Shown one piece after another: positions 3,526 to 57,068 of a stretch of DNA of 64,000 bases. The DNA is from Chiloscyllium plagiosum. Taxonomy: Eukaryota. The stretch is taken from the NCBI RefSeq assembly GCF_004010195.1, contig NC_057718.1:53689615-53753614 (forward strand), written 5' to 3'. How positions within the stretch are numbered: position 1 is the stretch's first letter; each line of letters begins with the position of its first letter. A program made the position numbers and the translations under genes. Under the pieces are notes generated by a model. The model saw nothing but the letters and a program-made list of their open reading frames with translations, did no database searches and was not told the origin of the DNA.

Positions 3526-3680
3526 TGTGGGGTGCTAGAAAAGCACAGCAGGTCAGACAACATCTGAGGAGCAGGAGAATCGCTGTTTTGGGCATAAGCC
3601 TTTCAGCCTGACCTGCTGTGCTTTTCCAGCACCACACTTTCCACTCTGATGTCCAGCATCTGCAGTCCTCACTATCTCCC
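3526..3680. mobile_element. Short fold-back PLE pLTR insertion (family 1) nested in a (TG)n tract
   Basis: Arms AAAGCACAGCAGGTCAG and CTGACCTGCTGTGCTTT are reverse complements; ends with the family tail CCAGCATCTGCAGTCCTCAC. Confidence 0.8.
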
Positions 3681-5058: not shown

Positions 5059-5099
5059 AAGCACCTGGTGAAGGAGCAGCGCTCTGAAAGCTCGTGCTT
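5059..5099 (+). ncRNA. Minimal hammerhead ribozyme motif with one core mismatch, in a PLE pLTR
   Basis: AAGCAC-CTGGTGA-AGGAGC-AGC-GCTCT-GAAA-GC-TC-GTGCTT: 6-bp stem I, stem II and AGCT palindrome; core reads CTGGTGA instead of CTGATGA. Confidence 0.65.
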
Positions 5100-5961
5100 C
5101 CAAATAAACCTGTTGGACTATAACCTGGTATTGTGTGATTTTTAACTTTGTCCACCCCAGTCCAACACTGGCTCCTCCACATCACTGCCTAAGGACCTGA
5201 TAGAGACTGGTACATTTACAACATTTAAAAAACACCTGGATGGGTATATGAATAGGATGGGTTTAGAGAGATGTGGGCCAAATGCTGGCAAATGGGACTA
5301 GATTAATTTAGGACATCTAGTCAGCATGGACAAGTTGGACTGAAGGGTCTGTTTCCATGCTCTACATCTTTATAACTTTGTGACTCTACGTTGGATGTAT
5401 GCAAACAATAAAAAGAGTTCACACACACTAGTGTTTTGGTTTAACCCTCGCATAAATCATTTATGCCAAAATTTAGTGAAAAATGTCATGTTTCCAGTCT
5501 CACCCTTAAAGTTGAGGCAAAACGCTCCATTTTTTTTGGAATTAAATGTGAGAATGCATCAGCTTTGCTTTCAATTTGGGCTTTGAGTACAAATTTTTGG
5601 AAAACTTATAAACCTACTATTGAAATACTAGCTTTGTGCAATCAGAAACAAAAGCGTTCATTGCAGGGATTAACTCCAATGAAGATCAATTCTGATAAAA
5701 CTACATGTAGTTTCATCAAGACATAAGCTTGTATCACACTTATACTTGTAATAGAATTTAGAAAACTGTAATATAAATATGATAAATTTTAAAACATTTG
5801 TAGTTACTGATTCCAGAATATAATCCACTGAGGAATATCTAAAATGCGCATCATTTTTATAACAATGATCTATTGGCTGATTGAAATGTAGCAAATGATT
5901 CATTGAATTCAATATCAAGCACAGGAATCTTTTTTTGTCTTTGGTCTTTTTATTTTATTTA

Positions 5962-6416: not shown

Positions 6417-7035
6417 TAGAATCATAAAGTGATATAGATCAGAAGGAAGTCATTTGACCCGTCCTGCTTTGTGCCAGTTCTTTGGTGAGAAAATCCAACT
6501 AGTTGCACTCTTCTGTTATTTTCCAATTGCTCAAAATGTATTTTTCTTTGCAGTATTCATGTATTGAAAAATGTGTTGCTGGAAAAGCGCAGCAGGTCAG
6601 GCAGCATCCAAGGAGCAGGAGAATCGATGTTTCGGGCATAAGCCCTTCTTCAGGAAAGGCTTCCTGAAGGAAAGGCTTCAGGATTATGCCCGAAACGTCA
6701 ATTCTCCTGCTCCTTGGATGCTGCCTGACCTGCTGCGCTTTTCCAGCACCACATTTTTCAGCTCTGATCTCCAGCATCTGCAATCCTCACTTTCTCCTAG
6801 TATTCATGTATTTCCTGTTGAAAGTTATGACTGAATCTGCTTCCACCGTCATTGAAAAACATTTTCCAGGTCACAACAATTTGCTGCATAATAGGTTTTG
6901 AAATCTTCATGTCTCTTTTCTGGATTCTTTCTTACCTTTGCATCTTATGGGTATCCACCCTTCTGCCACTGGAAAATTTCTCCTTATTGTTCCTTATCAT
7001 TTTAAGGGCCTCCATTAAATCTCCAAGGAGAACAA
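6417..7035 (-). mobile_element. Old CR1-like LINE 3' fragment, interrupted by a PLE palindrome
   Basis: TAGAATCATA-type tail and degenerate CR1 3' sequence on both sides of the 6566-6798 insertion. Confidence 0.55.
6566..6798. mobile_element. Fold-back PLE pLTR palindrome (family 1) with 14-bp TSD
   Basis: Inverted arms; AGTATTCATGTATT at 6552-6565 and 6799-6812; minus-strand CTGAAGAAGGGCTTATGCCCGAAACATC hammerhead motif. Confidence 0.9.
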
Positions 7036-11452: not shown

Positions 11453-11495
11453 AAGAGGCATCTAATATTCAAACCTCACATGCTGAAAGCATCAG

Positions 11496-11616
11496 TCCTG
11501 AAGAAGGGTCACTGGACCCAAAATGTTCTCTCCATGGAGGCTGCCAGATCTGCTGAGTTTCTCCAGCAATTTCTCCTCTGTTTTTTGATTTCCAACATTC
11601 ATAGTTCTTTGATTCT
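11496..11616 (+). mobile_element. PLE pLTR fragment (family 3) with degenerate hammerhead
   Basis: CTGAAGA-AGGGTC-ACTG-GACCC-AAAA-TGTT followed by GCTGCCAGATCTGCTGAGTTTCTCCAGCAATTTC; related to 25257-25427. Confidence 0.65.
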
Positions 11617-13363
11617 TCTGGAAACTTCAGCACCCCTCGATCAGCTTATCTCTTCATTCCTCACTGTCCAGGTACATTTTCCCTTAAACAGCAAATATTG
11701 ATACTCACTGTCACATAATTGATATCTGTCCCAATTCACTACAGTCACCCATCACAAACATCATTCCCCTCTCTCCACACAATCCACTTTTCACGCCATT
11801 AAGTCTCTACTTTCAGATGATGAGTGAAGAGTTCCAGGGAGTGGTAGAGATCAAGTTTAATTCATAATTTCCATCTCCCACAGGTCCTTCAAGTACACAG
11901 GGGCTGGTACAGGAGGACCTCATCCTCATAAGTGATTACTTACTTTAAGAAAGCATTTATCTCATGCCTACCCTCCACCAGCTCAAATTCAATCATCCTC
12001 AGAGACACCACCAGGGAGATAGCTAGCCTGGCATATGATGAAGGTTACATCACTAATGAACAGTGAAGACTGGGACAACAATGGAGAGTCCCTGTTAGAG
12101 GGCACAGGACATGCCAAGCTGCCATGATGTCTTAATTTTTGTGGTCTTAGTGCTGATGCCTGCATCCATGGAGACAGTGGCTGACTAAATGGAGAAATGG
12201 GCACAGCTACCAAGCACATACTGGCCTGGACCAATGGCCTGTACACTCAGCCTGCCACTGTACATAGGGTGGAGAAAAGTGTTGCCTTGGCCTGGGAAAT
12301 GTTCTCAACCTCACAGACAGCCAAGAGTTGCATGTGAACCATGAAAGCCAAGATGAAGAAAGAGCACGTGAAGGTGGACACTCAGCTGCAGTTGAAAGGA
12401 TGACTTGTTCGAGAAGGTTTCAGATCCCCAAAACCATCTGCCACAAGGGTGTGAGCCTCCTGAGGCACAGGTCTTTGGTCAGGTTGAGAAATCAGATCCT
12501 TTGTCAATTTTTTTGTAATGCTTTGGAAAATCTGGCTGTATTTAAAATTGATAAGTGTCGTAATAGTGCATGTTCTGCTCTTAATCGTACACACCTCTCA
12601 ACAGACAGGAGTGGTGCCAAAAGACAAGAGAATTGCAAAAGTCACACACATAATCAAAAATGTTTGGAAAGATAAATCCAGCAACTAGAGACCATTTGGT
12701 TTAACCTCAGTGTTAATGCTGTTGCCGTGGTGTACATAGAACATAGAACATAGAACAACACAGCACAGAACAGGCCCTTCAGCCCTCAATGTTGCACCGA
12801 TCTGTGAACTAATCTAAGCCCATCCCCCTACACGATCCCATCATCATCATCCATGGATTGTTTAAATCTCACTAATGTTGCTAAATTAACTACATTGGCA
12901 GGTAGGGTGTTCCACGACCTTACCACTCTCTGAGTAAAGAACCTGCCTCTGACATCTGTCTTAAAGCTATCACACCTCAATTTGTAGCTATACTCCCTCA
13001 TACAAGCTGGTGTCATCATCCTAAGGGAAAGACTTTCACTGTCTACCCTATCTAATCCTCTTATCGTCTTGTATGTCTCTATCAAATCCCCTCTTAGCCT
13101 TCTCCTTTCCAATGAGATCAGACCCAAGTTTCTCAACCTTTCCTCATTAGGCCTTCACTTCAGACCAGGCAACATCCTGGTAAATCTCCGCTGCATCTTT
13201 TCCAATGCTTTCACATCCTTACTGTAAAGGGGCAACCAGAACTGTACACAATATTCCAAGTGCATTTTGTATGACATTATGGCTCTGGAACTCAATCTCT
13301 CTACTAATAAAACCTAACACACTGTATGCCTCCTTAACAGCACTATCAACCTGGGTGGCAACT

Positions 13364-13453: not shown

Positions 13454-14265
13454 ATTACGGCTCTGGAACTCAATCTCTCTACTAATAAAACCTAACACAC
13501 CGTATGCCTCCTTAACAGCACTATCAACCTGGGTGGCAACTTTCAGAGATCTATGTACACCGACTCCAAGATCCTTCTGTACATCCACACTACCAAGAAT
13601 CTTTGCATTGACTCAGCATTTTGCCTTCCTGTTATTCTTCCCAAAGTGAATCACCTCACATTTATCTGCAATGAACTCTATTTAGTCATAGAGTTACAGA
13701 GATGTACAGCATGGAAACAGACCCTTCGGTCCATGTCCTCCATGCCGACTAGCTATCCCGACCCAATCTAGTCCCACCTGCCAGCACCCAGTCCATATCA
13801 TTCCAAATCCTTCCTATTCGTATACCCATTCAAATGTCTTTTAAATGTTGCAATTGTATTAGTCTCTACCACTTCCTCTGGCAGCTCATTCCATATACTT
13901 ACCAACCTTAATGTGTGAAAAAGTTGCCCCTTAGGTCTCTTCCAAATCTTTCCCCTCTCACCCTAAAACTATGCCCTCTGGTTCTGGACTCCCCCACCCC
14001 AGCGAAAATACTTTGTTTATTTATCCTATCCATGCCCCTCATGATTTTATAAACATCTATATGGTCACCCCTCAGCCTCTGATGCTCCAGGGAAAACATC
14101 CCCAGCTTGTTCAAACTCTCCCTATAGCTCAAATTCTCCAATCCTGGCAACATCCTTGTAAATCTTTTCTGAACCATTTCAAGTTTCACAACATCCTTCT
14201 GACAGGAAGGAGACCAGAATTGCACACAATATTCCAACAGTGGCCTAACCAATGTCCTGTACAGC

Positions 14266-14546
14266 NNNNNNNNNNNNNNNNNNNNNNNNNNNNNNNNNNN
14301 NNNNNNNNNNNNNNNNNNNNNNNNNNNNNNNNNNNNNNNNNNNNNNNNNNNNNNNNNNNNNNNNNNNNNNNNNNNNNNNNNNNNNNNNNNNNNNNNNNNN
14401 NNNNNNNNNNNNNNNNNNNNNNNNNNNNNNNNNNNNNNNNNNNNNNNNNNNNNNNNNNNNNNNNNNNNNNNNNNNNNNNNNNNNNNNNNNNNNNNNNNNN
14501 NNNNNNNNNNNNNNNNNNNNNNNNNNNNNNNNNNNNNNNNNNNNNN
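14266..14546. other. Assembly gap (N run)
   Basis: Run of N inside the CR1 RT. Confidence 1.
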
Positions 14547-16063
14547 ATATTGAACCCAGCACTGATCCTTGTGGCACTCCACTGGTCACAGGCCTCCAGT
14601 CTGAAAAACAACCTTTCACCACCACTCTCTGTCTTATACCTTTGAGCCAGTTCTGTATCCAAATGGCTAGTTCTCCCTGTATTCCATGAGCTCTAAGCCT
14701 GCTAACCAGTCTCCCATGGGGAACTTTGTCGAACGCCTTACCGAAGTCTACTGCTCTGCCCTCATCAATCCTCTTTGTTACTTCTTCAGAAAACTCAATC
14801 ACGTTTGTGAGACATGATTTCCCACGCACAAAGCCATGTTGACTATCCCTCCTCAGTCCTTGCCTTCCCTCCAACTTGCCCACCACCGATGTCAGGCTCA
14901 CTGGTCTATAGTTCCCTGGCTTGTCCTTACCACCCTTCTTAAACAGTGGCACCACGTTAGCCAATCTCCAGTCTTCCAGCACCTCACTTGTGACTATCGA
15001 TGATACAAATATCACAGTATGAGGCCCAACAATCACTTCCCTAGATTCCCACAGAGTTCTAGAGTACACCTGATCAGGTCCTGGGGATTTATCCATTTTT
15101 ATTTTGTTTCAAGACATCCAGCACTTCCTCCTCTGTAATATTTTTCAAGATGTCACCATCTATTTCCCTACATTCTACATTTTCCATGTCCTTTTCCACA
15201 GTAAATACTGATGCAAAATACTCGTTTAGTATCTCCCCCATCTCCTGTGGCTCCACACAAAGGCCGCCTTGCTGATCTTTGAGGGGCCCTATTCTCTCCC
15301 TAGCTACCCTTTTGTCCTTAATGTACTTGTAAAAACTCTGTAGATTCTCCTTAATTCTATTTGCCAAAGCTACCACATTTCTTCTTTTTGCCTTCCAGTT
15401 TTCCCTCTTACTCCAACTGCCTTTATACTCTTCTAAGGTTTCACTCCGTCTATCCTGTTTATACCTGACATATGCTTCCTTCTTTTTCTTAACCAAACCT
15501 TCAATTTCTTTTGTCATCCAGCATTCCCTATACCTACCTGCCTTTGCTTTCACCTTAATACTTTCTGTGGATTCTCGTTACCTCATTTCTTAAGGCTTCC
15601 CATTTTCCAGACTTTCCTTTACCTGCAAACATCTGCCCCCAATAAGCTATCGAAAGTTCTTGCTTAATTTTAAATCTAATAAAATTATGGTCACTGGCCC
15701 CAAAGTGCTCCCCCACTGACACCTCAGTCACCTGCCCTGCCTTATTTCCCAAGAGTAGGTCAAGTTTTGCACCTTCTCTAGTAGGTACATCCACATACTG
15801 AATCAGAAAATGGTCTTGTACACACTTAAGAATTTCCTCTCCGTCTACACCTTTAACTCTATGGCAGTCCCAGTTGATGTTTGGAAAGTTAAAATCCCCT
15901 GCCATAACTACCCTATTATTCTTACAGATAGCTGAGATCTCATTACAAGTTTGTTTTTCAATTTCCCTCTGACTATTGGAGGGTCTATAATACAATCTCA
16001 ATCAGGTGATCATCCCTTTCTTATTTCTCAGTTCCACCCAAATAACTTCCCTGGATGTATTTC

Positions 16064-19600: not shown

Positions 19601-21179
19601 CCTTGTCAAAAGTTCTTTCAACCACTGTTATACTATCCTTGACTAACAAGGCCACACCTCCACCTCTTTTACTGCCTTCCCTGTACTTAATGAAAGATCT
19701 AAATTCTGGAACCTGCAACATCCCTTTCTGACCCTGCTGTATCTATGTCTCCGAAATGGCCACAACATCAAGGTCCAGGTACCTATCCATGCTGCAAGCT
19801 CACCTACCTTATTTTGGATACTTCTGGCGTGGAAGTAAATACATTTCAAACCAACTTGCTGTCTGCCAGCACACTCCTGTGACCGTGAAATCCTGTCCAT
19901 GCCCTCCCTACTCTCATCTTCCTGTGCACTGGAACTACATCTCAGGTTCCCAACCCCCTGCTGAGCTAGTTTAAACCGACCCGGATAGCATCAGCAAATT
20001 TCCCATCCAGGATATTAGCACCCCCCTGGTTCAAGTGAAGATTATCCTGTTTGTAGAGGTCCCACTTTCCCCAGAATGAGCTCCAATTATCCATGTACCT
20101 AAAACCCTCCCTCTTGCACCATCCTTGCAGCCACGTGTTCAGCTGATATCCCTCCCTATTCCTTGTCTCGCTGTCATGTGGCACAGGTAACAAACCAGAG
20201 ATTACAACTCTGATTGTTCTAGCTCTCAGCTTCCACCCTAGCTCCCTGAAATCCTGCTGTACATCCCTATCCCTCTTTCTACCTATGTCGTTGATACCTA
20301 CGTGTACCACGACTTGGGGCTGGTCACCCTGTCCCTTCAGGACCATAAAGACACAATCTGAGATATCACGCACACTGGCACCTGGGAGGCAACACACCAA
20401 CCGTGAATCTTGCTCGTTCCCAACAAACCTGCTATCCGACCCTATTGAGTCCCCAATGACTAACACTTTCCTCCTTTCCCTCCTTCCCTTCTGTGCAACA
20501 GGGACAGACTTTGTGCCAGAGATGTGCACCCCACTGCATGCCCCGGTAAGCCATCGCCCCTACAGTACCCAAAACGGTATACTTGTTTTTCAGGGGATCC
20601 CTGCAGTGACTGTTTTTTCCCCTTTTAACAGTCACCCAGCTTTCTTCGTGCCTAGGAGTAACTACTTCCCTGTAACTTTTATCTACCACCGTCTCTACCT
20701 CCCGAATGATCTGAAGTTCATCCAGCTCCCGCTCCAGTTCCCTAACGTGGTCGTGGAGAAGCAAGAGTTGGGTGCACTTCCTGCAGATGTTCTTGGATGG
20801 GACATTAATGGCATCCCTCACCTCAAACATCATTCAGGAGGAGCATTCCTCTCCCTGTATTGCCATTCCCCTTATCAGAATGTAAAAAAGAGAGACCTAC
20901 CTGATGTGACCATGGTGTTTAAGGTTACAGGAGGTGGGTGGGTGGGAGGCCCTACAAGAGTAGGGTCTCGGGTTTAGAAAACACTTACTTATATAGCTGG
21001 AGGAAAATAAAAAGTCCCTCCTTTCCCAGAAACCACTACTCTCCAATGTCAGATGTAATGATTCAAATCAGTGATTCATTGCTTCCACCCTTGTTGCTGC
21101 TGCTGCATACATAGGTGTCTAAAGGCATATGATGTAATCCCCCATAATAACAACATATGGCAGATATGTCAGTAAAGCT

Positions 21180-25039: not shown

Positions 25040-26592
25040 ACAATGTTACAAATTGAGATAAATAGGTATGATTGAGTGTCCATAACTAAGACGTGGCTGC
25101 AGGATAACCTAAAATGGAACCTGAACATTGAAGGATATGTGACATTTAGGAAGAACAGGAAGCTAGGGAAGTGTAGATGATTAACTCTGTTAATTAAAGA
25201 TGATATGACCACAATAGCGAGGGATCACCTTAATTCAGAAAACTGGGATATAGAAGTAAAAACAGAAATTGTTAGGAAGTCTGGCAGATTCTTCAGAAGG
25301 GACACTGGACCTGAAATACTAACCCTGCTTTCTCACCACATATGCTGCCAGACCTGCTAAGATTTCCCAGCAATTTCTGATTTTGTTTCTGATTTCCAGC
25401 ATCTGCAGTACTCTTTTTTTTGTTTTCGGATATAGAAGCAGTCTGGGAGGAGTTGAGAAATGACAAATGCTACTTGTGTGAATTGCGTAGGGGTCTCCTA
25501 ACAGTAACACTTCTATGTCCCTAACATAGAAGGACAGGATATCAAGGAAGAAATAATGGGAGCTTCTCAGAAGTGTACAGCAATTATCCTTGGGGATATC
25601 AATTCACATGTAGACTGGGAAAATTAGGTGGGCAGAAATGAAGTCATTGAACGTTTTCAAGACAATTTTTAAAGACTATATAGCAGGCTGTACTAAATTT
25701 GGTTTTGACCAATGAGTTAGATTAATTACTGACCTCACAGTGAAAACACCCCTGGGTAGTAGCGACCATTAAATGATTGAATTTTACATACAGTTTAAGG
25801 GAGCAAAGTGGGGTGCAAGCCTACTATTTTGCATTTTATCAAGAGCAGTTATGAGGGCATGAAAGCAAAACTATTGAAAAGTGAACTGCAATTTAGGTTA
25901 AGGGATAGATAATAGAGATGTAGTAGCAAACATTTAATGGAATATTCCAGAAAGCACAGAATAGGTACCTTCCAACAAATGAGAAAATTCTAAGGGACAG
26001 ACCATCATCCAAGAAAGTCAAAGAAGATATAAGCTCAAAGAAAATTGAGATGAATGCAAAGATAGGTGGTAGGTCAGAAGACTGGACAGAGTATAAAAAG
26101 ACAACAAAAAATTCTGAAAAGGTTAATAAAGAGAGACAAATTAGAGTACAAGAAAAAGCTAAAATCTGGAAGAAACAGAAAGGAAAAGTTCCTTCGCATG
26201 TTTAAAAATGAAAGAGCTAACAACGTTAGTGTTAGTCTCATAGAAACTGGGAAATTTCCCATAGAGTCTGGGAAATTAGTAATGGAGAATGAGGAAATAA
26301 GGAAATGGCAAATGAATTGAACAGATAATTTGCATCTATCTTCACTAGAGAGGATCCTGGAAATAGCTGTAAATCAGGAATTGAAAGGGAGGGAGAAGCT
26401 CAACTAAATTCCAGTTATGAGGGATATTGTTCTAAGTAAATTGTTAGAACTGTGAGTTGACAAGTCTCAGCTCCTGATAATTTTCATCCTATGGTCTTAA
26501 AAGAAGTGGAATAGTTGATGCATTGGGTTTAATTTTCCAAAACTCATTTGATTCAGGAAAGGATCCTTTGGATTGGAATACTTTTATTCAAA
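25040..26592 (+). mobile_element. Old CR1 ORF2 (endonuclease to start of RT), heavily decayed
   Basis: ITKTWLQD..WNLNIEGY, GDINSH.DW, LGSSDH, FHPMVLKEV motifs. Confidence 0.8.
25257..25427 (+). mobile_element. PLE pLTR insertion (family 3) with 11-bp TSD
   Basis: GGATATAGAAG at 25246-25256 and 25428-25438; short inverted arm plus degenerate hammerhead. Confidence 0.75.
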
Positions 26593-26593
26593 C

Positions 26594-28490
26594 TGTGGAG
26601 GTGCCAGTGTTGGATTGGGGTAGACAAAGTGGGAAGTCACAGGACATGAGGTTACTGTGCAATAGGTTTATTTGAAATCATACAAGCTTTCGGATCACAG
26701 CCCCTTTGTTAGATGCAGTGAGATAGGTGAACACACATACAGAGTTTATAGGCAAAGAAATCAAGGGAAGAGAGATCAAAAGATCATAGACATGGTGTGA
26801 GTGGAGTGTTGGATAATAGGTCTCTGCAGGCGATCAAGGGTGTTAGATGGTGTATAAAGTGTTTATAAAGTCAATGTCAATGCTGTGCTATAATGACATG
26901 AATATACAAAAGGTGACACTTCAGATCTGACACTGAATTGTAAGTGTGAGGCTTTGTTCACCATGGACGTGCAATCCTTATACATGCCCATACAACACAA
27001 GGATGGCCTTCAGGCCCTCAGCTTCTTCCCGTCCAACAGACCCACCCACTCCCCCTCTACCAATACCCTCCTCCAACTCGCCAAACTAGTTATTACCCTT
27101 AATAACTTTTCCTTTAATTCCTCCCATTTCCTCCAATCCCAGGGGGTGGTCATGGGCACTCAGATGGGTGGGCCTCAGCTATGCCTGCCTCTTTGCCAGC
27201 TATGTCAACCAGTCCCTCCTCAGTACCTACACAGGCACTGTGCCCCAACTCTTCTGCCGTTATATCAATGACTGCATCGGTGCAGTGTCCTGCACCCAGG
27301 CTGGACTGGAGCAGTTCATCAACTTCGCCCACAACTTCCAGCCTGCCCTCAAATTCACTTGGTCCATCTCAGACACTTCCCGCCCCTCGCTTGACCTCTC
27401 TGTTTCCATCTCCTGTGACAGTCTCCAGACAGACATTCACTATAAACCCACAGACTCTCACAACTACCTGGACTACACTTCTTCCCACTGAGTATCCTGT
27501 AAGATCTCCATCTCATTTTTCCAACTTCTCCACCTCTCCCTCTGCCACATCTGCTTGGACAAGGAGCCATTCTATTCCCAAGCATCCCAGATATCCTCCT
27601 ATTTCAAACAATGTGCTTTTTCCTCCCTTTATCATCCAGACAGCCCTCCACCGGACCACCTCCATTCCTCGTTCCACTGCTCAAAACACCCCAAATGCAA
27701 TAAAGGCAGAATCCCCTTGTCCTCATCTATCACCCCACCAATCTCCATTTCCAACACATCATCCTTAAACACTTCTGCCAACTCCAACTAGGCCCCACCA
27801 CCCAGGGCATCTTCTCCTCCCCACCCTTCTCTGCTTTCCGTGAGGACTGTTCCTTCCGACAGTCCTTAGTTTGCACCACTCTCTGCACAAAACACCCCGA
27901 ACCCCCAGGGCCCTTCCCCTGCAACCAGAAAAGATGCAAATCCTGCTAGTACACTAGGCCAGCCATCTCCATCCAGGGCCCCAAACAGTCGTTCTGGGTG
28001 AGACGCAGATTCACCTACCTCTCCTCCAACCTAGATTATTGTGTCCGGTGCTCCCACTGTGGTCTTCTCTACATCGGGGAGACCGAACATAAACTAAGGG
28101 AACGTTTCGCTGAGTATCTCAGCCAGGCCCGCATAGGCTGACTGGATCTCCCAGTCACCACTTATTTTAATTCCCCTTCCCACTCCTTTCCGATTTGACC
28201 ATCCTTGGCTTCCTCCATTGCCGCAACGAATCAAACTGCAAATTGGAGGAACAACACCTCATCTTCCACCTGGGCAGCCCTCAGCCTGCAGGACCCAACA
28301 CTGAGTTTTCCAATTTCAAATAACCTCCCTCCCCATTCCCTGCCTCCCTTCCCAGCCTCTTCCTTCCCTTCCTCTCCTCCTAGCCACCAACCAGATTCAT
28401 TTCTCCCATCGACCAACCAGTTCGTACCCTCTACCTGTCTTCGCCTATCCCCACTTCACCACTCTGCTGCTGCCACCCCCTTTATCAGAT
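26594..28490 (+). mobile_element. Penelope-like element: inverted pLTR arm (about 26594-26950) then decayed RT and GIY-YIG
   Basis: FTMDVQSLY, GVVMGTQMG, RYINDC (YIDD-like), YKPTDSHNYLDYTSSH, CGLLYIGET motifs. Confidence 0.9.
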
Positions 28491-29949: not shown

Positions 29950-30415
29950 AAATGATGTCTTCAAGATTTTAATAGGAAAACATATTCCCACTGTTTCCAC
30001 TGGTTGAGGATTGCAGTGCTAGGAGCCGTTATCTGAATACTCGGGCCAGACCATTCAGGAGAGAAGCTAGGAAGCACTTCTACACACAAAGAGTAGTAGA
30101 GATTTGGTATGCACTTCCACAAATGGTAGTTGATGCTAAATCAATAATTCAGTTTAAATCTGAGATAGATACACTTTTTTGTTAAGCATGGATATTAAGG
30201 GGTACGAGCCTAAGGCAGGTATAGGCCACAGATCAACCATGACCTCATTGAATGGTGGAACAGGCTAAGTGTCTGAATGTGGATTAGTGGTGCTGGAAGA
30301 GCACAGCAGTTCAGGCAGCATCCAAGGAGCAGCGAAATCGACGTTTCGGGCAAAAGCCCTTCATTTACCTAAGTGTCTGAATGACCTACTCCTGTTCCTA
30401 CTTTCCTATGTTCAT
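29950..30415 (+). mobile_element. CR1 3' fragment
   Basis: FRREARKHFYTQRVVEIWYALP and CR1 3' UTR. Confidence 0.8.
30280..30368 (-). mobile_element. Minimal PLE pLTR insertion (family 1 variant) with 15-bp TSD
   Basis: CTAAGTGTCTGAATG at 30265-30279 and 30369-30383; minus strand ATGAAGGGCTTTTGCCCGAAACGTCG, truncated inside the hammerhead core. Confidence 0.88.
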
Positions 30416-32872
30416 ATTTGAATTTTTTTTATTCATGGTATATGGGCATCTCTGATTAGCATTTATTGCTTATTCTTAATTATAATCAACTCATAGACAC
30501 TTCCTAATGCCTGCACAATATTCATTTCTAAACAGGAGAGATTCTGTATCTTTAAAAGCAATAACAAATCTCCTGGTGCATGCTCCACAGTTCTTCAGAG
30601 TTCATGATTTCAGGAACACCATGAATTTTATCCATGTTTAATTCAACCTTCCCATTACCTGGATTACAGCATTATCTTATGTTCAACTGCCAAGTAAAAA
30701 TCATCTCCTTACCCAGAGTTGTTGGACAACATATCAGTCTAGGAAAACGTATTCACTCATAGAAATTATAAGGATCAAGCACCAATATTTTAAATATTAT
30801 ATCTGCTACGTCCAGTAGGACACGACTGTTATTCCAAAGCCAAGCATATGAAACTGAGCAGCGTGGCATTGGAGCAAATGCTGATCATTCCAGAATGTTG
30901 AGGGACAATCAGGAAGAAAATTATGAAGCATTGATAAGTATTGTAGCAGAATCAATGGACATGAGGGAAGCAACAATATTCCAAATAGATGACAAAATAG
31001 ACAATGAAACAAGGCAATGAAATCAGAAGATTCTGAAATCAGTTTCCCCAAACTGAGGAGGGGTGTGTGGTTTTATTCTCTGAAAGAACAATGACAGACC
31101 TTTGGGTAATGGTGAGGAGTAGCAGGCAGTGCTGCAGACAGGCTTAGAGGTCCTTGCTGTGTGCTGGATTGTCCCCTCCAACAAACCTCACATTTATGAC
31201 CTGGGTGCCATTTCTATCTTTTACTAACCCTCCATTTGTGAGAATGCACACCTGGGCCTTAGCTGGACAGAGAACCTGTTGCCTTGTCAATGAAAAGAAT
31301 GTGTCTGTCAAAATCTCAAAACATGTCTTTTTTTCTGGGAGTGGGTCCATGGCCCAGAAACAGTCTCGACTTCATTTCCAACTCCAAAGGAAAACTTGAG
31401 CTTTGTACTTGGAGTTAACTCCAGGTACATTGGAGAATGAAAAAGCTCAAAGATCATGAAAGTAACAAATGGACATATTCTGGTGAATGATAAATGCACA
31501 AATCTCCTTTGTTAAGCATAATTAATTTGTGAAAAGATGTCAAAAATGAGGTCAAAACTAATTAATAGATTAAATGTCGAAATAATGTTGGACATGGGAA
31601 AAATCTAGCTAGTCTGAGAACACTATGCATGTGGTCAATGTTACCAAACCTACTCTGAATCAGTCCCTTCATGCTCCACCTTTAATAAAAAAAACACCAA
31701 CAATACAGGAACTTTTCAGCTTTCATGTATGAGATCATTAAATATATGAATAAAATTGAAACATTGAGCCACACAATAGCTAACGAGTTTAATCAATTTC
31801 ATTGTGCTTTTAAACTAAATTTCATTACGCCAGGATTCATTTTACCACTCACCTTTGCTACAGGCATTTAATTAAAAATTAAACAACTTTTTAAAAAATC
31901 CATATCTCATTGTAACTATTTATACTTGTGCAGTTGGAGAGGCGTTCTGGAAGCCTGCCACATCAAGTCTCCAAACTGTAAGACACTCCGATCAATGATA
32001 TATGAGCCAGTTCATTTCTGATTGCCTGCCACTGAACCAAGTAAAAGTTTGTGTTCTTTTTATCGTGGCTGCTGATGCATAAACATGTGTCAAAATTGAT
32101 ATTACCGAATGTAAGTACCTCATTTTATGGATGCAATATCGCAAACAATCTTTCAGAAACTCTATGACAGGAGCAGGTTTGAACTCCAAGTATTTATCCC
32201 AATTTCAGTGACATTTTCTTTATTTTATTTTTGTTATTGATTCTATCTGAATTTTTTCTTCTGTTCTAACACCAAACATTGATGAACTCGCAAATTTACA
32301 AACGTATGAATCAGAAACAGAAATATCCCTTTCAGCCTCTCAAACCTGATAAGCCATTTGTTCAAATCATGGTGTACCATATCGTAACCTCACGTCCACA
32401 TTTTTGCTTACCTTGATAACCTCTCAGCACTTTGTTTAACAAAAATCTATCTACCTCTGCATTGAAAATACTTAAGAACTGTTCTTCTTCCTTCCTTCAG
32501 GAAGGGAGTTCCAAAGATTAAAAAAAAGTCACAGAGCAAAAAATGTTACCTCATCTATGTTGTCATTGTGTAATCCCTGATTTTTAAACAGTGACACCTC
32601 ATTCTAGGTTCTCCTTTTCACATCTACCCTGTCAAGATCCCTTAGGACTTTATATGTTTCTTCAAGTCATCTTTTACTCTTCTAAATGCTAGCTGATACA
32701 AGCTCAACTTGTCTAACCCTTCCTTATAAGGTAACCGACTTAGGAATTAGTCTTGTAATTCTTTTTTGAATGTTTTCTACTGCACTTACATCCTTCCTCA
32801 AATAAGATGACAAATGTTGTGCTCAGTACTCGAGACGTGATCTTACCAGTTCTCTGTACAACGATAACATAG

Positions 32873-34761
32873 GAGAAAGTGAGGACAGCAGATGCTGGAG
32901 ATCACGGGCAAAAAATGTGGTGTTAGAAAAGCGCAGCAGGTCAGGCAGCATCCAAGGAGCGGGAGAGTTGATGTGGTTAGATGGGAAGGAAGATGGACAG
33001 GTAGGACAGTTCAAGAGGGCAGTGCCAAGTTGGAGGGTTGAATCTGGGGTAAGGTGGGGAGAGGGGAGATGAGGAAACTGGTGAAATCAACATTGATCCT
33101 ATGTGGTTGGAGGGTCCCAGGCAGAAGATGAGGTGTTCCTCCTCCAGGCATCGAGCGGCTTGGATTCAGCAGGGGAGAAGGCCCAGGACTTACATGTTCT
33201 TGGCAGAGTGGTAGGGGGAGTTGAAGTGGTCAGTCACAGGGCGGTGGAGTTGTTGGGTGCGTGTGTCCTGGAGATGTTCCCTGAACCTTTCTGCAAGTTG
33301 GCATCCTGTCTCCCCAATCAAAAGATGTGCAGGTTAGGTGAAATAGCCATGCTAAATTGCCTATAGTGTTCAGGGATGCGTAGGTTAGGTCCACTAAGTC
33401 AGGGGTAAATGTAGAGTAATAGGATAAGGGAATAGGTCTAGGTAGGTTACTCTCAGAGGGTCACTATGGATGTGTTGCGCCAAATGACCTGTTCCACATT
33501 GTGGGGATTCTATGATGTGGAGGAGACCACACCGGGAACAATGGACACAGTAGATCAGGTGTTTGGATGTGCAGGAAACTCTCTGCTAGATGTGGAAGGA
33601 TCCTTTGGGGCCTTGGATGGAGGTGAGGGAGGAGGTGTGGGCACAGGTTTTATACATCTTGTGGTGGCAAGGGAAGGTACCGGGAATGGAGGGTGGGTTA
33701 TTCGACTCCAGAACATCCCAGATGGCATCTTACTTCAAGGACCATAATTGCCCCTTCCACATGTTCAACAATGTCCTCCAGCACATCTCCTCCATTTCCT
33801 GCACCTCTGCCCTTAAACCTCACCCCTCCAACCGCAACAAGGATAGGACATCCCTGGTCCTCACCTTCTACCCAACCAATCTCCGGATACATTGCATCCT
33901 TTGCCATTTCCACCACTTACAATCAGACCCTACCGCCAGAGATATATTTCCCTCCCCAGCACTATCAGTATTCTGGAGAGATCTTAAATTTGCAACTCTG
34001 TGATTAGGTCCAGCCCCTCTCCAACCTATATTCCACTCCTGGCACCTTCCCTTGCCACCACAAGAGGTGTAAAATCTGTGCCCACACCTCGCCCCTCAGC
34101 TCCATCCAAGACCCCAAAGGAATTCCTCCACATCCAGCAGAGATTTTCCTGCACATCCAAATATCTCATGTACACTGTCCATCACTCTTGTTGTGATCTC
34201 CTGTACATTGGGGAGACAGGATGCCAACTTGCGGAATGGTTCAGGGAACATCTCTGGGACACATGCACCAGACAACCCCACCAGCCTGTGGCTGACCACT
34301 TCAACTCCCCCTCCCTCTCTAAGTCCTGGGCCTCCTCCACTGCCAAATCCAAGCTACCAGATGCCTGGAAGAAGAATACTTCATTTTTGCCTTGGGACAC
34401 GCCATCCACATGGGATCAATATCGATTTCAGCAGTTTCCTCATCGCTCCTCCCTCCAACTTATCCCAGATCCAACTCTCTAACTTAGCACTGCCCTCTTG
34501 AACTGTCCTACCTGTCCATCTTCCTTCCCATCTATCTGCTCCACCCTCCACTCTGACTTATCACTATCACCCCCCCCACCTTCATCTACCTGTTGCCTTC
34601 CAAGTCACCTTCCCCCAGCCCCACCCCCTTCCTATTTATGTCTCAGCCCCTATGCCCCATCGCCCAACATTCCTGATGAAGAGCTTATGCCAGAGACGTA
34701 AACTCTTCTGCTCCTCGGATGCTGCCTGACCTGCTGTGCTTTTCCAGTGCTATACCTTTTG
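32873..34761 (+). mobile_element. Penelope-like element (family 1): inverted arm (about 32873-33700) plus direct GIY-YIG and pLTR
   Basis: CCDLLYIGETGCQLAEWFREHL; left arm is the reverse complement of the right; TSD ACAAC(G/T)ATAACATAG at 32858-32872 and 34762-34776. Confidence 0.9.
33312..33512 (+). mobile_element. HE1-type SINE fragment nested in the PLE arm
   Basis: AAAGATGTGCAGGTTAGGTGAA..GCCATGCTAAATTGCC..CCTGTTCCACATTGTGGGGATTCTATGA. Confidence 0.75.
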
Positions 34762-35449
34762 ACAACTATAACATAGCCTTTCTATTTTTGTGCTAATTTC
34801 TCTTGCAGTAAATAAAAACATTCTGTTAGCTTTCCTACTTATTTGTTCTGCCTGCATACTAACATTTTGAAACCCAGATCTTTCTGCATCTTCGAGCTAC
34901 AAAATCGTTCACCATTTTGATAATATGCTTCTTTTAAAATTGTTTTAATTGTTGCCAAAATGTACAATTTCATATTTTCCAACATGATACTCTATTTGCC
35001 ACATTTTTGCCCATGTGTTAATCTATCTATATCTTATATCCTCTTCACAACTTACTTTACTAACACTCTTTGTGACATGAGCAAAGTTGGCAACCCCACC
35101 TTCATTCAAGTCATTTCCATATATTGTAAACAGTTGCAATCCCACCATCAACCATGTGGTACACGACTTACCAATCTGAAAAAGACACTTTTATGCCTGA
35201 TCTCAGCTTCCTGTTAACTTCTCAAACTTTTGCTGTACAAATATGCTACCACCTACACCTATTACTACCCACATTAATCTTTGATAAGACACTTTATCAA
35301 CTTTTTATGAAAATCTAATTACAGTACATCCAGCAGTTTCCCCTTAACCACAGCTTCTATTTCTCCTCAAACAATTCCAGTAGATAAGGCAAACATGATT
35401 TCCCTTTCACAAAACCATGTTGACTCTGCTTGGTTACAATTAAACATAG

Positions 35450-35670
35450 AGGAGAAAGTGAGGTCTGCAGATGCTGGAGATCAGAGCTGAAAATGTGTTG
35501 CTGGAAAAGCGCAGCAGGTCAGGCAGCATCCAGGGAACAGGAGAATCGCCGTTTCGGGCATAAGCCCTTCTTCTGCATTCCTGAAGAAGGGCTTATGCCC
35601 GAAACGTCGATTCTCCTGTTCCCTGGATGCTGCCTGACCTGCTGCGCTTTTCCAGCAACACATTTTCAGC
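35450..35670. mobile_element. Fold-back PLE pLTR palindrome (family 1) with perfect 15-bp TSD
   Basis: About 89-bp inverted arms with one mismatch; TACAATTAAACATAG at 35435-35449 and 35671-35685; 35-nt unpaired tail at 35450-35484. Confidence 0.95.
35577..35612 (+). ncRNA. Minimal type I hammerhead ribozyme motif, intact core
   Basis: attc-CTGAAGA-AGGGC-TTAT-GCCC-GAAA-C-GTC-gatt; loopless stem III with ACGT palindrome; stem I is weak. Confidence 0.7.
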
Positions 35671-35817
35671 TACAATTAAACATAGCTAAATCTCCTGCTT
35701 TAACTTCTTTAATAATAGTTGCTAACATTTACTTATATGACAGATGGATATGAAACAACTTGAATAATCACACTGTTCTTTCCTTCTCTATCTTCAGCTC
35801 CCTCATGTCTTTTTTTG

Positions 35818-36092
35818 TTGAATTGAATTGCATTGAATTGAAATTATTGCCACGTGTACCGAGGCACAGTGAAAAGCTTTGTCCTCTGAGCAATATAGGC
35901 AGATCACATAGCTAAGTAGCATAAATAGCAAATAATAGGTAAACAGTGGCAAAAACAAAAACACAGGTACAGGCGAACGTTAAGAGTTTGTGAGTCCATT
36001 CAGTATTCTAACAACAGTAGGGTAGAAACTGTTACAAAACCAGCTGGTGCGTGTGCTCAGGCTTCTGTACCTTCTCCCCAATGGTAGAGGCT
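35818..36092 (-). mobile_element. Rex1/Babar LINE 3' fragment
   Basis: Minus strand PLPLGRRYRSLSTRTSWFCNSFYPTVVRILNG; (CAATT)n tail. Confidence 0.8.
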
Positions 36093-36521: not shown

Positions 36522-36733
36522 CGAGGAGAAAGTGAGGTCTGCAGATGCTGGAGATCAGAGCTGAAAATGTGTTGCTGGAACAGCGCAGCAGGTCAGGCAG
36601 CATCCAGGGAACAGGAGAATCGACGTTTCGGGCATAAGCCTTCCTGAGGAAGGGCTTATGCCCGAAACGTCGATTCTCCTGTTCCCTGGATGCTGCCTGA
36701 CCTGCTGCGCTGTTCCAGCAACACATTTTCAGC
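36522..36733. mobile_element. Fold-back PLE pLTR palindrome (family 1) with perfect 13-bp TSD
   Basis: Perfect inverted arms; TACATTTTATTTT at 36509-36521 and 36734-36746. Confidence 0.95.
36641..36675 (+). ncRNA. Minimal type I hammerhead ribozyme motif, intact core
   Basis: ttc-CTGAGGA-AGGGC-TTAT-GCCC-GAAA-C-GTC-gatt. Confidence 0.65.
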
Positions 36734-41869: not shown

Positions 41870-43800
41870 CTCACAAAGAGTGGGAGTCCAGAAAGCTGGG
41901 TTACTTGTAAGGGCTTTGGACACCTGTTCAGGGCTGGAGAGGAGATTACAAGAAGAGGGGAGGATCCAGTTGTTGTGGTTTCTGTAGGTACCAATGACAT
42001 TAGCAGGACAAGGAAAGAGATTCTTCAAAGTCAGTATGAGGAGCTTGGCAGCAAATTGAGAAACTAAACCTCAAAGTAAATGACTTCTGGATTACTACCT
42101 AAGCCACGTGCTCTTGTGTATAGTGTATAGAAAAGCATGGTTTGAAGATAGCGCAGTAGAAGTGAGTTCCAGTTCCTGGGTCACTGGCACTATTATTGGG
42201 CCAAATAGCATCTGTACCATTACAACAATCTACCATCTGACCTGTGCTGGGACCAATGGTCTAGTGGACCATATGCCTAGAGAACTAGAGAGAACTTTAA
42301 ACTAAATTAGTTGGGGAAAGTGATCAAAATCTTTGAAAATGTAGCAAATTAATGAGTAGTGATAAGAGAGAATGAGACCAGACCATAAAGGAAAGGAATA
42401 GACAGGTCATAAATCAGAGTAATTGAACAAATAAGAATAGAGATTGATAAAATAATAAAAGGAGAAAACTGAAGGCTCTGAATGCGCACAGCTTTCAAAG
42501 GAAAACAGATGAAGTGATAGTGCAATAGAATTAAGTAGATACAATCTGATAGCAGTTACAGAGGCATGGCTGCAGGATGGCAAAAAACGGGGACCTGAAT
42601 ATTAAAGGGTACATGACATTCAAGTAGGACAGGAAGCTAGGAAAAGGTGAAGAGGTAACACTGTTGACTGATGATGGTATTAGCTCAATAAAGAGGGATG
42701 ACTTAAGTTCAGAAAACTAAGACATAGCAACAGTTTGGGTAAAGCTGTACAATGATAAAGATAAGAAGTGTTTAAGGAAGTGGAGAACAGGGCCTGACTA
42801 GTTTCCACAGTGTAAGATAGAGTATGAAAGAAGAAATGGGAGCTTGTCAAAATGCTACAACCATGGAGAATGTTAATTTGCCAAGAAACTAGGAAAATCA
42901 GATCGGTAAAGGTAACCTTAACAAGGAGACCATAGAATATTTTCAGGCTGTTCTTTTTTTGAAACAGCATGTCTGAAGAACAAAGAACAGGCTATACTAG
43001 ACCTAGCATGTGCAATGCAATAAGAATTGTTAACAACCTCATACTGAAGGCATGCCTGGTGACCATGATAAGATAAGATTTCACATTCAGTTCAAGGGAG
43101 AGAACAGTGAACCTAAGGCTAGTATTTTAAGTTGAAATTATCAATGCTTAAAAGCTGAGCTAACTAAAGTCAACCAGAAACTCAGGTTAAGTGTTAGGCA
43201 ATAGATATACAGTGTTGAAAGTGTGGTGCTGGAAAAGCGCAGCAGGCCAGACAGCATCCGAGGAGCAGGAGAATTAATGCTTTGGGCATAAGCCCTTCTT
43301 CAGGAATCCACACTTTTCAACTCTGGTCTCCAGCATCTGCAGTCCTCACTTTCTGCTAATAGATATACAATGGCAGATAATGAGGGGACTTTTCAGAAGC
43401 ATAGAATACATACATTGCAATGAGAAACAAAAATCCCAAATGGAGGACCCAAGATCTGTGGTTAACTTAAGGAGTAAACATTTTAATAAGTAAAGGTGGC
43501 TGGCAGGTAAGAAGATTGCATATAATATTTTAAAAAGCAAAGAAAGACCAAAAATTAATAGCAAGAGAGAAAATAGTGTACAAGAAGAAGCAAAATAGAA
43601 ATATAAAAACAGTTAGTGTTTCTATCAATAGTTCTGCAAAGGAAAATATTAACATAGTGAACGAGAGTTTTGTGAAAGGTGTGCCTGGAGAATTAATAAT
43701 GGAAAATAAGGAGATGATAGATGAATTGGAGAGGGAATTTTGCTTCTCTCTTCATCATAAAACATACAAGCTCTATTCCAGAAATAGATGTAAATCAGGA
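41870..43800 (+). mobile_element. Old CR1: ORF1 esterase end plus ORF2 endonuclease, decayed
   Basis: GEDPVVVVSVGTNDISR, SGLLPKP, DLIAVTEAWLQ, GELIMENKEMIDEL. Confidence 0.8.
43212..43357. mobile_element. Fold-back PLE pLTR insertion (family 1) with 12-bp TSD
   Basis: AATAGATATACA at 43200-43211 and 43358-43369; minus arm runs to the hammerhead, plus arm is short with the tail. Confidence 0.88.
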
Positions 43801-47558: not shown

Positions 47559-47634
47559 AGGAGAAAGTGAGGTCTGCAGATGCTGGAGATCAGAGATGGA
47601 AATGGGTTGCTGGAAAAGCGCAGCAGGTCAGGCA
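47559..47634 (-). mobile_element. Single PLE pLTR arm (family 1) with tail
   Basis: AGGAGAAAGTGAGGTCTGCAGATGCTGGAGATCAG...GCAGGTCAGGCA. Confidence 0.85.
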
Positions 47635-53695: not shown

Positions 53696-55904
53696 AGGTA
53701 GGTGGTAGGTGTCGGGAATGTTGGATGACTAGAGAAATGGAGGGTTTGGTTAAGAAAAAGAAGGAAACATGTCAGGTATAGACAGGATGAATCGAGTGAA
53801 TTCTTAGAAGAATATAAAAACAGTAGGAGTTTACTTAAGATGGAAATCTGGAGGGCAAAAAGGGGACATGAGATAGCTTTGGAAAATAGGGTAAAGGAGA
53901 ATCCAAAGGGTTTTTATAAATACATTAAGGCCAAAAGGGTAACTGGGGAGCGAATAGGGCCTGAAAATGCATTGCTGGAAAAGCGCAGCAGGTAAGGCAG
54001 CATCCAAGGAGCAGGAAGAAGGGCTTATGCCCGAAATGTCGATTCTGCTGTTCCTTGGATGCTGCCTGACCTGCTGCGCTTTTCCAGCAACACATTTTCA
54101 GCTCTGATCTCCAGCATCTGCAGTCCTCACTTTTTCCAGCGAATAGGGCCTCTCAAAGATCAGCAAGGCAGCACTTGTATGGAGCCGCAGGAGATGAGGG
54201 AGATACTAAATGAGTATTTTGCATCAGTGTTTACTGTGGAAAAGGATATGGAAGATATAGAATGTTGGGAAACAGATGGTGACATCTTGGAAAATGTCCT
54301 GGAGGAAGTGCTGGATGTTTTGAAACACATAGAGGTGGATAAATCCCCAGGACCTGATCAGGTGTACCCTAGAACTCTGTGGGAAGCTGGGGAAGTGATT
54401 GCTGGGTCTCTTGCTGAGACATTTGTATCATCAATAGTCACAGGTGAGATGCCAGAAGACTGGAGGTTGGCTAATGAGGTGCCATTATTTAAGAAAGGTG
54501 GTAAGGACAAGCCAGGGAACTATAGACCAGTGACCCTGATGTCAGTGGTGGGCAAATTGTTGAAGGGAATCCTGAGGGACAGGATGTACATTTATTTGGA
54601 AAGGCAAGGACTGATTAGGGATAGTTAACATGGCTTTGTGTGTAGGAAATCATGTCTCACAAACTTGATTGAGTTTTTTGTGGAAGTAACAAAGAGGATT
54701 GATGTGCTCAGAGTGGTAGATGTGATCTATGTGGAATTCAGTAAAGCGTTCGACAAGGTTCCCCATGGGAGACTGCTTCGCAAGTTTAGATCTCACGGAA
54801 TACAGGGAGAACTAGCCATTTGGATACAGAACTGACTCAAAGGTAGAAGACAGAGGGTGGTAGTGGAGGGTTATTTTTCAGACTGGAGGCCTGTGATCAG
54901 TGGAGTGCCACAAGGATTGGTGCTGGGTCCACTACTTTTCATCATTAATATAAATGATTTGGATATGAACATAGGAAGTATAGTTAGTAAGTTTGCAGAT
55001 GACTCCAAAATTGGAGGTGCAAAGAAGGTTACCTTGCATTACAACGGGATCTTGATTAGATGGGCCAATGGGCTGAGAAGTGACAGATGGAGTTTCATTT
55101 AGATAAATGCAAGATGCTGCACTTTGGGAAAGCAAATCTTAGCAGGACTTATACACTTAATGGTAAGGTCTTTGGGAGTGTTGCTGAACAAAGAAACCTT
55201 GGAATGCAGGTTCATATCTCCTTGAAAGTAGAGTGGCAGGTAGATAGGATAGTGAAGAAGGCGTTTGGTATGCTTTCACTTATTGGTCAGAACATTGAGT
55301 ATAGGAGTTGGGAGGTCATGTTGTGGCTGTGCAGATCATTGGTTAGGCCACTTTTGGAATATTGCGTGCAATTCTGATCTCCTTCCTATTGGAAAGATGT
55401 TGTGTAACTTGAAAGGATTCAACAAAGATTTACAAGGATGTTGCCAGGGTTGGAGGATTTGAGTGAGAGGGAGAGGTTGAATAGGCTGGGGCTATTTTCC
55501 TTGGAGCGTTGAGGGCTCAGGCATAATCTTATACAGGTTTATAAAGTCATGAGGGGCATGGATATCATAAATAGACAAAATCTTTTCACTGGGGTGGGGG
55601 AATCCAGAACTAGAGGATATAGGTTTAGGGTGAGAGGAGAATGATATAAAAGGGATCTAAGGGGCAACTTGTTCACACAGAGAGTGGTACATGTATGGAA
55701 TGAGCTGCCAGAGGAAGTGGTGGAGGCTGGTACAATTACAACATTTAAAAGGCATCTGGATGGGTATATGAAGAGGAAGGGTTTGCAGGGATATGGGCCA
55801 GGTGCTGGCAAATGGGACAGGATTGGGTTAGGATAGCTGGTCGGCATGGACGAGTTGGACCAAAGGGTCTGGTTCCGTGCTGTATATCTCTATGACTCTA
55901 TGAC
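53696..55904 (+). mobile_element. 5'-truncated CR1 LINE inserted antisense in the previous CR1
   Basis: DKSPGPD, PGNYRPV, KAFDKVPH, SGVPQG, SKFADD, LVRPLLEYCVQF; (CTCTATGA)n tail. Confidence 0.93.
53963..54137. mobile_element. Fold-back PLE pLTR insertion (family 1) with 14-bp TSD
   Basis: AGCGAATAGGGCCT at 53949-53962 and 54138-54151; inverted arms. Confidence 0.9.
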
Positions 55905-56827: not shown

Positions 56828-57068
56828 GATTAGATTTTTTTGTAGATTAGATTCCCTACAGTGTGGAAACAGGCCCTTTGGCCCAACAAGTCCACACCAA
56901 TCCTCCGAAGAGTAACCCACCCAGACCCATTTCGCTCTAACCAATGCACCTAACATGATGGGCAATTTAGCATGGACAATTCACCTGACCTGCACATCTT
57001 TGGACTGTGGGAGGAAACTGGAGCACCCAGAAGAAACCCATGCAGACACGGGAAGAATGTGCAAACTC
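56828..57068 (-). mobile_element. HE1-type SINE, 5'-truncated
   Basis: Minus strand GAGTTTGCACATTCTTCCCGTGTCTGCATGGGTTTC...GGGCCTGTTTCCACACTGTAGGGAATCTAATC. Confidence 0.85.

Follow-up and report, generated by a model that had tools for sequence, protein, structure and literature searches.

The insert and its relatives in the window

The insert at 35450-35670 of the 64-kb window (the whole stretch of DNA that was analysed, 40.5% GC and rich in retroelement remains) is 221 nt long, contains no ORF and is located between exact 15-bp target-site duplications (TSDs), TACAATTAAACATAG. On the plus strand the order is TSD, reversed 35-nt tail, 89-nt inverted arm, 97-nt sense arm and TSD (Table 1). 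The two arms, at 35485-35573 and at 35583-35671, each measure 89 nt and are 99% complementary across a 9-nt spacer, with 1 difference in 88 between inverted and sense arm; the insert is nevertheless asymmetric, the tail at 35450-35484 having no counterpart on the sense arm. A chance control found an exact 15-mer repeat at about the same spacing at 146 of 20,000 random window positions, tandem repeats counted in. The preliminary description of this DNA, a 221-bp insert with ~89-bp inverted arms and a perfect 15-bp TSD, is thus borne out. The locus is a true insertion of the hammerhead-bearing end of a Penelope-like element (PLE), present as two copies head to head, and it is young. A second high-copy repeat starts ~130 nt to the right of the insert (35814-35873 and beyond; summed contig depth ~2e5).

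Table 1. Coordinates of the insert, its predicted hammerhead elements and related copies; junctions are given as inverted end/sense start in the coordinates of the 35450 copy
Feature	Position	Strand	Junction	Basis or remark
Left TSD	35435..35449	.		15 bp, exact match to 35671-35685
Insert (35450 copy)	35450..35670		35583/35574	
PLE tail, 35 nt, inverted arm only	35450..35484	-		arm comparison
Inverted tail-bearing pLTR-end copy, ending inside the CUGAAGA box (equivalent to 35583)	35485..35573	-		self-complementarity
Sense tail-less pLTR-end copy (97 nt), hammerhead front edge to inner end	35574..35670	+		self-complementarity
Initiator-like motif CATTC, A at 35577; sense arms begin here	35575..35581	+		contig loose ends at 35576-35578
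Minimal type I hammerhead motif, whole	35576..35613	+		pattern match; ribozyme activity predicted
Hammerhead helix I, weak	35576-35580 with 35609-35613	+		motif reading
Hammerhead CUGAAGA box	35581-35587	+		motif reading
Hammerhead extra A	35588	+		motif reading
Hammerhead helix II	35589-35600	+		motif reading
Hammerhead GAAA	35601-35604	+		motif reading
Hammerhead C-G / UC	35605-35606 / 35607-35608	+		predicted cut after 35608
Right TSD	35671..35685	.		15 bp, exact match to 35435-35449
Older, longer insertion of the same layout, TSD 14 of 15	32871..34761	+		alignment, protein search
Near-identical sister fold-back, different centre, 13-bp TSD	36522..36733	+	35590/35578	alignment
Sister fold-back (6566 copy), 14-bp TSD, ~27 nt of templated-looking fragments at centre	6566..6798	-	35593/35578, ~27 nt between	alignment
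Sister fold-back (53963 copy), sense arm begins downstream of core, 14-bp TSD	53963..54137	-	35583/35614	alignment
Older sister (43212 copy), very short inverted arm, 12-bp TSD	43212..43357	-	~35656/35577 (inverted end by eye)	alignment
Older sister (3526 copy) inside CA microsatellite	3527..3680	-	35632/35590 (BLAST); sense start ~35581 by eye	alignment
Lone sense arm, related subfamily, 15-bp TSD	30280..30368	-		alignment
Lone tail-bearing inverted arm, no TSD seen	47559..47634	-		alignment

The same design had been proposed for copies at 3526, 6566, 36522, 43212 and 53963, with a single-arm form at 30280. All of these exist, but the sense arm of the 53963 copy lacks a hammerhead core, and the 43212 and 3526 copies have decayed cores and short inverted arms. 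The tail-only arm at 47559-47634 had been missed, as had the PLE copies at ~25257-25427, 11485-11620 and 2748-5184. TSDs of 12-15 bp flank 7 of the 9 family copies, one other being in a microsatellite and one being without. Poly(A) tails are absent from the PLE-type family insertions; within the window the PLE tail is found on every inverted arm (8/8) and on no sense arm (0/8) of the 16 arms from nine copies that were aligned.

The centres of the two-armed short copies in the window all differ (6/6), and the 35450 and 36522-36733 copies have unlike junctions although only 2 of 92 bases distinguish them. Sense starts fall within 35574-35590 in 6 of 7 short copies, and inverted ends range from 35583 to ~35656. 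The exception to a sense start at the hammerhead edge is the 53963 copy, which shares the inverted end at 35583 with the 35450 copy. Variants are mostly concordant between the arms of one copy, e.g. a private G on both arms of the 36522-36733 copy, and the arms disagree at subfamily-type sites in two copies, 53963 (35619) and 6566 (CAACAC/CACCAC). A tree of 11 arms over 71 columns, omitting the 5 of 16 arms that are too short or deleted, has low support, and only near-identity is drawn from it. The centre of the 6566 copy (6657-6683) consists of short direct and inverted fragments of the hammerhead front edge, as repeated template switching in end joining would give. The 53963 copy is situated in a LINE piece related to that at 14248-15108 / 19969-20559.

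The longer insertion at 32871-34761 (1.9 kb) is made up of a tail-bearing inverted arm and a sense arm, ~83% alike and each with a broken PLE GIY-YIG endonuclease region. The arms of the insert had been matched to the pLTR of this element; the match stands, its ends being 82-88% identical to the insert arms and tail, but this level of identity makes it an older relative and not the source copy. Its inverted arm lacks ~165 nt including the hammerhead (32975-32985) and carries an extra piece at 33310-33512 that matches 56848-57013. The TSDs of this element (32858-32872) and of the insert (35435-35449) both begin ACAA-like and end AACATAG, a pattern that is absent from the remaining TSDs and may reflect chance or a common host repeat.

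Pfam models applied to 20 window ORFs gave no GIY-YIG match, the window piece of the long element being without any Pfam match, and a word-index protein search with its 68-residue frame returned no candidate. An exhaustive phmmer search with the frame returned 437 proteins at E<=0.001, and an Atlas search with the same frame gave a first match of 0.95, with GIY-YIG on 18% of members. Among eight phmmer matches scanned with Pfam, seven have GIY-YIG (E<=0.01) and four RVT_1, the Pfam cut-off for GIY-YIG being exceeded by 3-4 of the eight (P0020, P0062, P0003, P0002); the relatives of the region are proteins in which RVT_1 and GIY-YIG occur together (P0020). A CxxxxCxxC linker precedes GIY-YIG at ~34040-34070, and the linker motif (Cx2-5CxxC) occurs in 52 of the 83 protein matches with enough upstream sequence. 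The element of the insert is probably an endonuclease-bearing (EN+) PLE, and the linker points to the Neptune clade. The 64-kb window contains only broken PLE ORFs and no intact autonomous PLE.

Other PLE families have also left remains in the window. A second family at 2748-5184 (2.4 kb) has the inverted layout. Its long arm is tail-less and contains what remains of a GIY-YIG region (3722-4460, minus strand), and its shorter arm bears 35 nt of tail (5150-5184). A hammerhead-like motif peculiar to this family occurs at 2831 (-) and ~5066 (+), and the 3526 mini copy is inserted within the element. A third terminal-repeat family is represented by a short fold-back at ~25257-25427 that is centred on the hammerhead edge and flanked by an 11-bp TSD, and by an older single arm at ~11485-11620. 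A broken PLE at 26954-28480 (+) retains RT and GIY-YIG regions, its 3' end stopping before any visible hammerhead. Pfam matches to RVT_1 at 14248-15108 (-) and to a GDSL esterase-like domain at 19969-20559 (-) are presumably the remains of CR1/L2-type LINEs.

The hammerhead motif and its folding

The motif CTGAAGA-A-GGGC-TTAT-GCCC-GAAA-C-GTC is present at 35581-35608 on the sense arm, as had been described. Several features of minimal hammerheads (min-HHR) are found there, namely CUGAnGA, the extra base, a G10.1-C11.1 helix II, GAAA, the palindromic 15.2-16.2 and UH. The homology of arms and tail, the protein search and the published description of such motifs (Cervera 2014) together support both parts of what had been proposed, an origin from a PLE and a motif of the minimal type I. 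In folding, GAAACGUC pairs with itself over 4 bp at -3.1 kcal/mol. Helix I consists of C-G, U-A, a U.U mismatch and A-U, followed by a mismatch, as against the 4-5 bp typical for the class, and a forced active-like fold has -3.8 kcal/mol against -8.2 for the MFE. Two other PLE families in the window have the same boxes with different helix II sequences, as judged by eye from copies that are both partly decayed.

A pattern scan of the window with <=1 mismatch gave four motif matches against 0.06 expected, these being related repeat copies and not independent events. A relaxed hammerhead scan gave four matches, where 30 shuffles averaged 0.7 and reached at most 3, which is weak alone. The check by covariance models that had been suggested came out negative: with Rfam models there were 10 matches over the whole window at E<=5 and three over 35574-35670 at E<=10, none to a hammerhead family. 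This is not taken against the motif because Cervera 2014 used a dedicated descriptor and not the canonical models. The sub-threshold Rfam matches, mostly to microRNA hairpin models, were rejected as a by-product of the fold-back.

RNA of the whole insert is predicted to collapse into a single hairpin (-191.3 kcal/mol, z -26.9); there the probability of helix II is 0, and pairing takes up 25 of the 28 core bases. Single arms fold with a stability no greater than that of shuffles (z -1.14 to 0.59, 7/7), and the opposite strand of the insert has no CUGAnGA box. The hammerhead is probably carried along as a passenger by the PLE terminal repeat, and it is predicted to be unable to fold in RNA spanning the whole insert. 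Since the insert covers the predicted cut after 35608, the template RNA would have been uncleaved there. Inverted arms ending at the cut site, as joints at 35608, 35609 and 35611 might suggest, find no support in the window, where no copy (0/7) has such an end. For annotation, such hairpins score as microRNA-like, and they inflate genomic ribozyme counts though the motif would be blocked in the fold-back.

Copies in public contigs and the probable building of the hairpin

Three public DNA contig sets, X2 and X5 (both from organism A) and X11, were aligned to the sense arm and right flank. The aligned contigs number 50,093, 32,499 and 46,436 in the three sets, which indicates a very abundant family; the depths give no copy number. 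The best-supported loose 5' ends among those listed are at 35576-35578, with 293, 213 and 129 contigs in X2 (213 at 35577), 233 and 218 in X11 (218 at 35577) and 83 in X5 (at 35578); smaller piles occur in X5 at 35626 (72) and 35586 (49) and in X11 at 35625 (63). The consensus before 35576 resembles by eye the PLE body upstream of the hammerhead (34650-34672), and before 35577-35578 there is long flank sequence of low agreement. Just before 35577 the consensus letter is G in X2 (213) and X11 (218), a C being ruled out there by construction and the G carrying no frequency.

Among the joints listed, 12 rows, which carry no label for the kind of joint, were considered. Six run from 35608-35621 to 35577-35580, all six with inserts ending in G, and the non-tail junction inserts reaching 35577 among those listed likewise end in G (4/4). 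The other six start at 35656-35671 and are head-to-tail in appearance; their inserted letters resemble the tail start, and they were not counted as inversions. Opposite-strand joints number at least two among those listed. The joint listing is blind to near-symmetric centres, those of the 35450 and 36522-36733 copies being absent from it, and the contig data are for this reason compatible with a high-copy family of fixed centre. Subfamily variants at 35619 and 35623 divide the family. In organism B a 226-nt contig aligns from 35864 to exactly 35671 and continues with 32 letters unlike the arm, which is a probable empty site at 35671; in X2 and X5 the depth is zero over part of the unique right flank. 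Pattern scans for further copies in viral contigs, metagenome contigs and prokaryote genomes gave no matches. Several joints from the arm 3' end to 35574-35626 look as if other loci carried partial tandems of the terminal repeat, arranged head to tail, and such tandems could permit dimeric hammerhead folding.

The insert is likely a complete but miniature EN+ PLE insertion whose hairpin was built anew, as it would be at each insertion. The PLE protein, supplied by an autonomous copy elsewhere, would cut the target with a 15-nt stagger, as the observed TSD indicates, and both freed 3' ends would serve as primers for reverse transcription that began at internal sites of the PLE RNA. As the layout and in vitro results for a different PLE suggest, initiation at an outer site would yield a cDNA with the 35-nt tail and initiation at an inner site a tail-less one. 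The tail-less cDNA would run to a fixed point at the hammerhead front edge, where an uncleaved RNA most likely had its 5' end. The tail-bearing cDNA would halt at a variable point, and head-to-head joining of the two would often involve microhomology or a few added bases.

Support for PLE insertion comes from the layout, an inverted 5'-truncated copy with a one-sided 30-40-nt tail and TSD being the published PLE signature, and from the recurrence of this layout at 1.9 kb with GIY-YIG and at 2.4 kb in a second family. With two freed ends and separately primed cDNAs, the hairpin would be made afresh at each insertion, and the six differing centres argue against a fixed fold-back family. Several points weigh against this account. 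The sample of centres is limited to six two-armed copies; other loose 5' ends exist (35586, 35625, 35626) and the 53963 sense start is off the hammerhead edge; and the variants shared by both arms would also be expected of a hairpin master or of self-priming by a fold-back. Twin cDNA synthesis itself is known in vitro only, from a Poseidon-clade element according to the available text of Frangieh 2024 (PMC11167929). Of the earlier suggestion that the inserts are a stereotyped abortive PLE product, the first adjective is apt and the second is probably wrong, since sense arms have a fixed starting point, as expected of a cDNA copied through to the RNA 5' end.

Less firmly, the fixed sense start may be the 5' end of the RNA. 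Two things point this way, the motif CATTC at 35575..35581, which we liken to the initiator consensus and presume to act in a promoter, and the internal promoters held by PLE pLTRs (Arkhipova 2013, PMC3846280; Schostak 2008, PMC2377424, as far as the accessible text of each extends). A tentative extension, somewhat more doubtful than not, is that the short copies are untruncated: they would be full-length cDNAs of a capped RNA from the initiator (A35577), with internal starts ~95 and 130 nt downstream and the cap copied as an extra G, the arms being made by a PLE dimer on both target strands, sometimes from two RNA molecules. The G before 35577 in X2 and X11 and at the end of the 4/4 listed junction inserts points in this direction. 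Reverse transcriptase can copy the cap as an extra G, as in work on L1. A paper bearing on this rule (PMC5860796, in its available part) speaks of untemplated bases only.

A rather unlikely account of the RNA source is SINE-like, in which transcripts come from solo pLTRs or from short copies with initiator and tail retained, and are copied in trans by the PLE protein. The inversion would still be made at insertion, and the account differs from the miniature PLE insertion only in where the RNA comes from, with which it is compatible. Very many copies begin at 35577-35578 joined straight to unique flank, and the young subfamily variants (35619, 35623) fit such a source; moreover pLTRs are described as sufficient in cis for mobilisation in trans (Arkhipova 2013, PMC3846280, in its available part), and non-autonomous PLEs are on record (Craig 2021, PMC8557442, likewise in part). 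The PLE-body-like consensus before 35576, on the other hand, shows that related terminal repeats sit on longer elements, and the sense arms of the inserts have no tail.

Unlikely, too, is an origin in a single cDNA that folded back and primed itself, or in abortive hairpins left by RT stalling at the hammerhead helix. Helix II is a stable small hairpin, and the concordance of arms within a copy would be expected of one cDNA; self-priming has also been proposed from palindromes at inverted junctions (Arkhipova 2013, PMC3846280, in the text available). However, one arm reaches the hammerhead edge without a tail, so that the tail-bearing arm would need a further template switch, and starts pile up 11-13 nt upstream of helix II, where RT is already past the helix. 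The disagreement of arms in the 53963 and 6566 copies is weaker evidence on the same side, later mutation being possible.

An independent retrozyme-like fold-back family, in which a hairpin RNA of 220 nt, linear or circular, is processed by the hammerhead and retrotransposed as a unit, had been put forward in the preliminary description and is very improbable. Its own test there was whether centres are unique, and the 6/6 differing centres in the window speak against it, as does the absence of retrozyme features: there is one motif per insert and there are no head-to-tail units, the copy spans the cut site and neither starts nor ends there, the motif is of the minimal PLE type and would be paired to its own antisense in whole-insert RNA, and the other strand is without a CUGAnGA box. 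What it would account for is the young, abundant, ORF-less and TSD-flanked state of the copies with private variants common to both arms; some joints, too, have depths of 38-135 against ~10-22 for ordinary long contigs, so that a few centres may recur, and retrozymes are reported as derived from PLE pLTRs in the available part of a preprint (Li 2026, bioRxiv 10.64898/2026.07.22.740005). An assembly artefact, or rearrangement by repair or misassembly after insertion, can practically be dismissed: inverted repeats are prone to misassembly and centre deletion, and the 53963 copy may have lost its centre later, but the exact TSD, the one-sided tail, the six short and the long copies of equal polarity, the opposite-strand joints in independent public contigs and the probable empty site in organism B all stand against it.

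The insert bears on how PLEs make inverted repeats and tails and on the role of PLE hammerheads. One such insert holds, within 221 bases, both cDNA starts, both stops and the junction, and the abundance and youth of the inserts allow direct statistical tests of the PLE mechanism; it is the fixed start and possible cap G that could still make them a large natural test of PLE integration. If the capped full-length reading were true, the genome would preserve single PLE integration events in very large number, a natural archive sufficient to decide how inverted pLTRs and tails originate, and a single arm could act as a polymerase II SINE of a PLE.

Comparison with known systems

Retrozymes of the non-LTR type resemble the insert in being small, non-coding, hammerhead-bearing and kin to PLE pLTRs (PMC7229834; 10.64898/2026.07.22.740005; both as partly available). 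They are head-to-tail tandems with a hammerhead per unit and circular RNAs (PMC7229834, available part), unlike the insert, a head-to-head pair whose single motif would be blocked by antisense; all window copies have one motif and are head to head. The available text of the retrozyme preprint describes sampling of one cartilaginous fish (Li 2026, bioRxiv 10.64898/2026.07.22.740005).

The min-HHRs of metazoan PLEs have no helix III loop, a palindromic 15.2-16.2, an extra base at 9/10.1 and G10.1-C11.1 (Cervera 2014, PMC4209133, from its available part, as for the statements on that survey that follow). The motif of the insert shares all those core features; its helix II is 4 bp and its helix I weak (2 bp, U.U mismatch, 1 bp). 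Most min-HHRs are solo, and opposite-strand pairs 100-700 bp apart are ascribed to truncated PLEs; in the assay the single motif tested gave no cleavage and dimers gave low cleavage (PMC4209133). Sharks are not mentioned in the accessible text of that survey (PMC4209133). Among the titles and abstracts searched, which took in few subscription papers, there was no report of such shark mini fold-backs, and supplements or figures may hold examples.

Purified PLE protein is able to cut and extend both strands, and in the same work two internal RT start sites bound the tail, with mostly uncleaved RNA templates (Frangieh 2024, PMC11167929, in its available part). The insert shares a minimal hammerhead within the pLTR with that element, Poseidon of Anolis carolinensis (PAc), and on the account above would also resemble it in its tail bounds, in the use of both target strands and in an uncleaved template (PMC11167929). 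PAc is a Poseidon-clade element with an ORF beginning within helix II, on the available text (PMC11167929), unlike the local long element with its Neptune-type CxxxxCxxC linker and the local hammerhead, from which no long ORF begins.

PLE units typically consist of an inverted copy with a tail and TSD (Arkhipova 2013, PMC3846280; Craig 2021, PMC8557442; Schostak 2008, PMC2377424), as described in the available parts of these papers. The insert matches EN+ PLE units so described in the head-to-head inverted 5'-truncated copy, the one-sided 30-40-nt tail, the TSD, the short overlap or palindrome at the junction and the initiator-like motif in the pLTR; it differs in that the unit is only ~150-230 nt, has no ORF, has a fixed sense start and is very abundant. 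On the features tested the insert behaves as an EN+ PLE insertion, of a kind already known.
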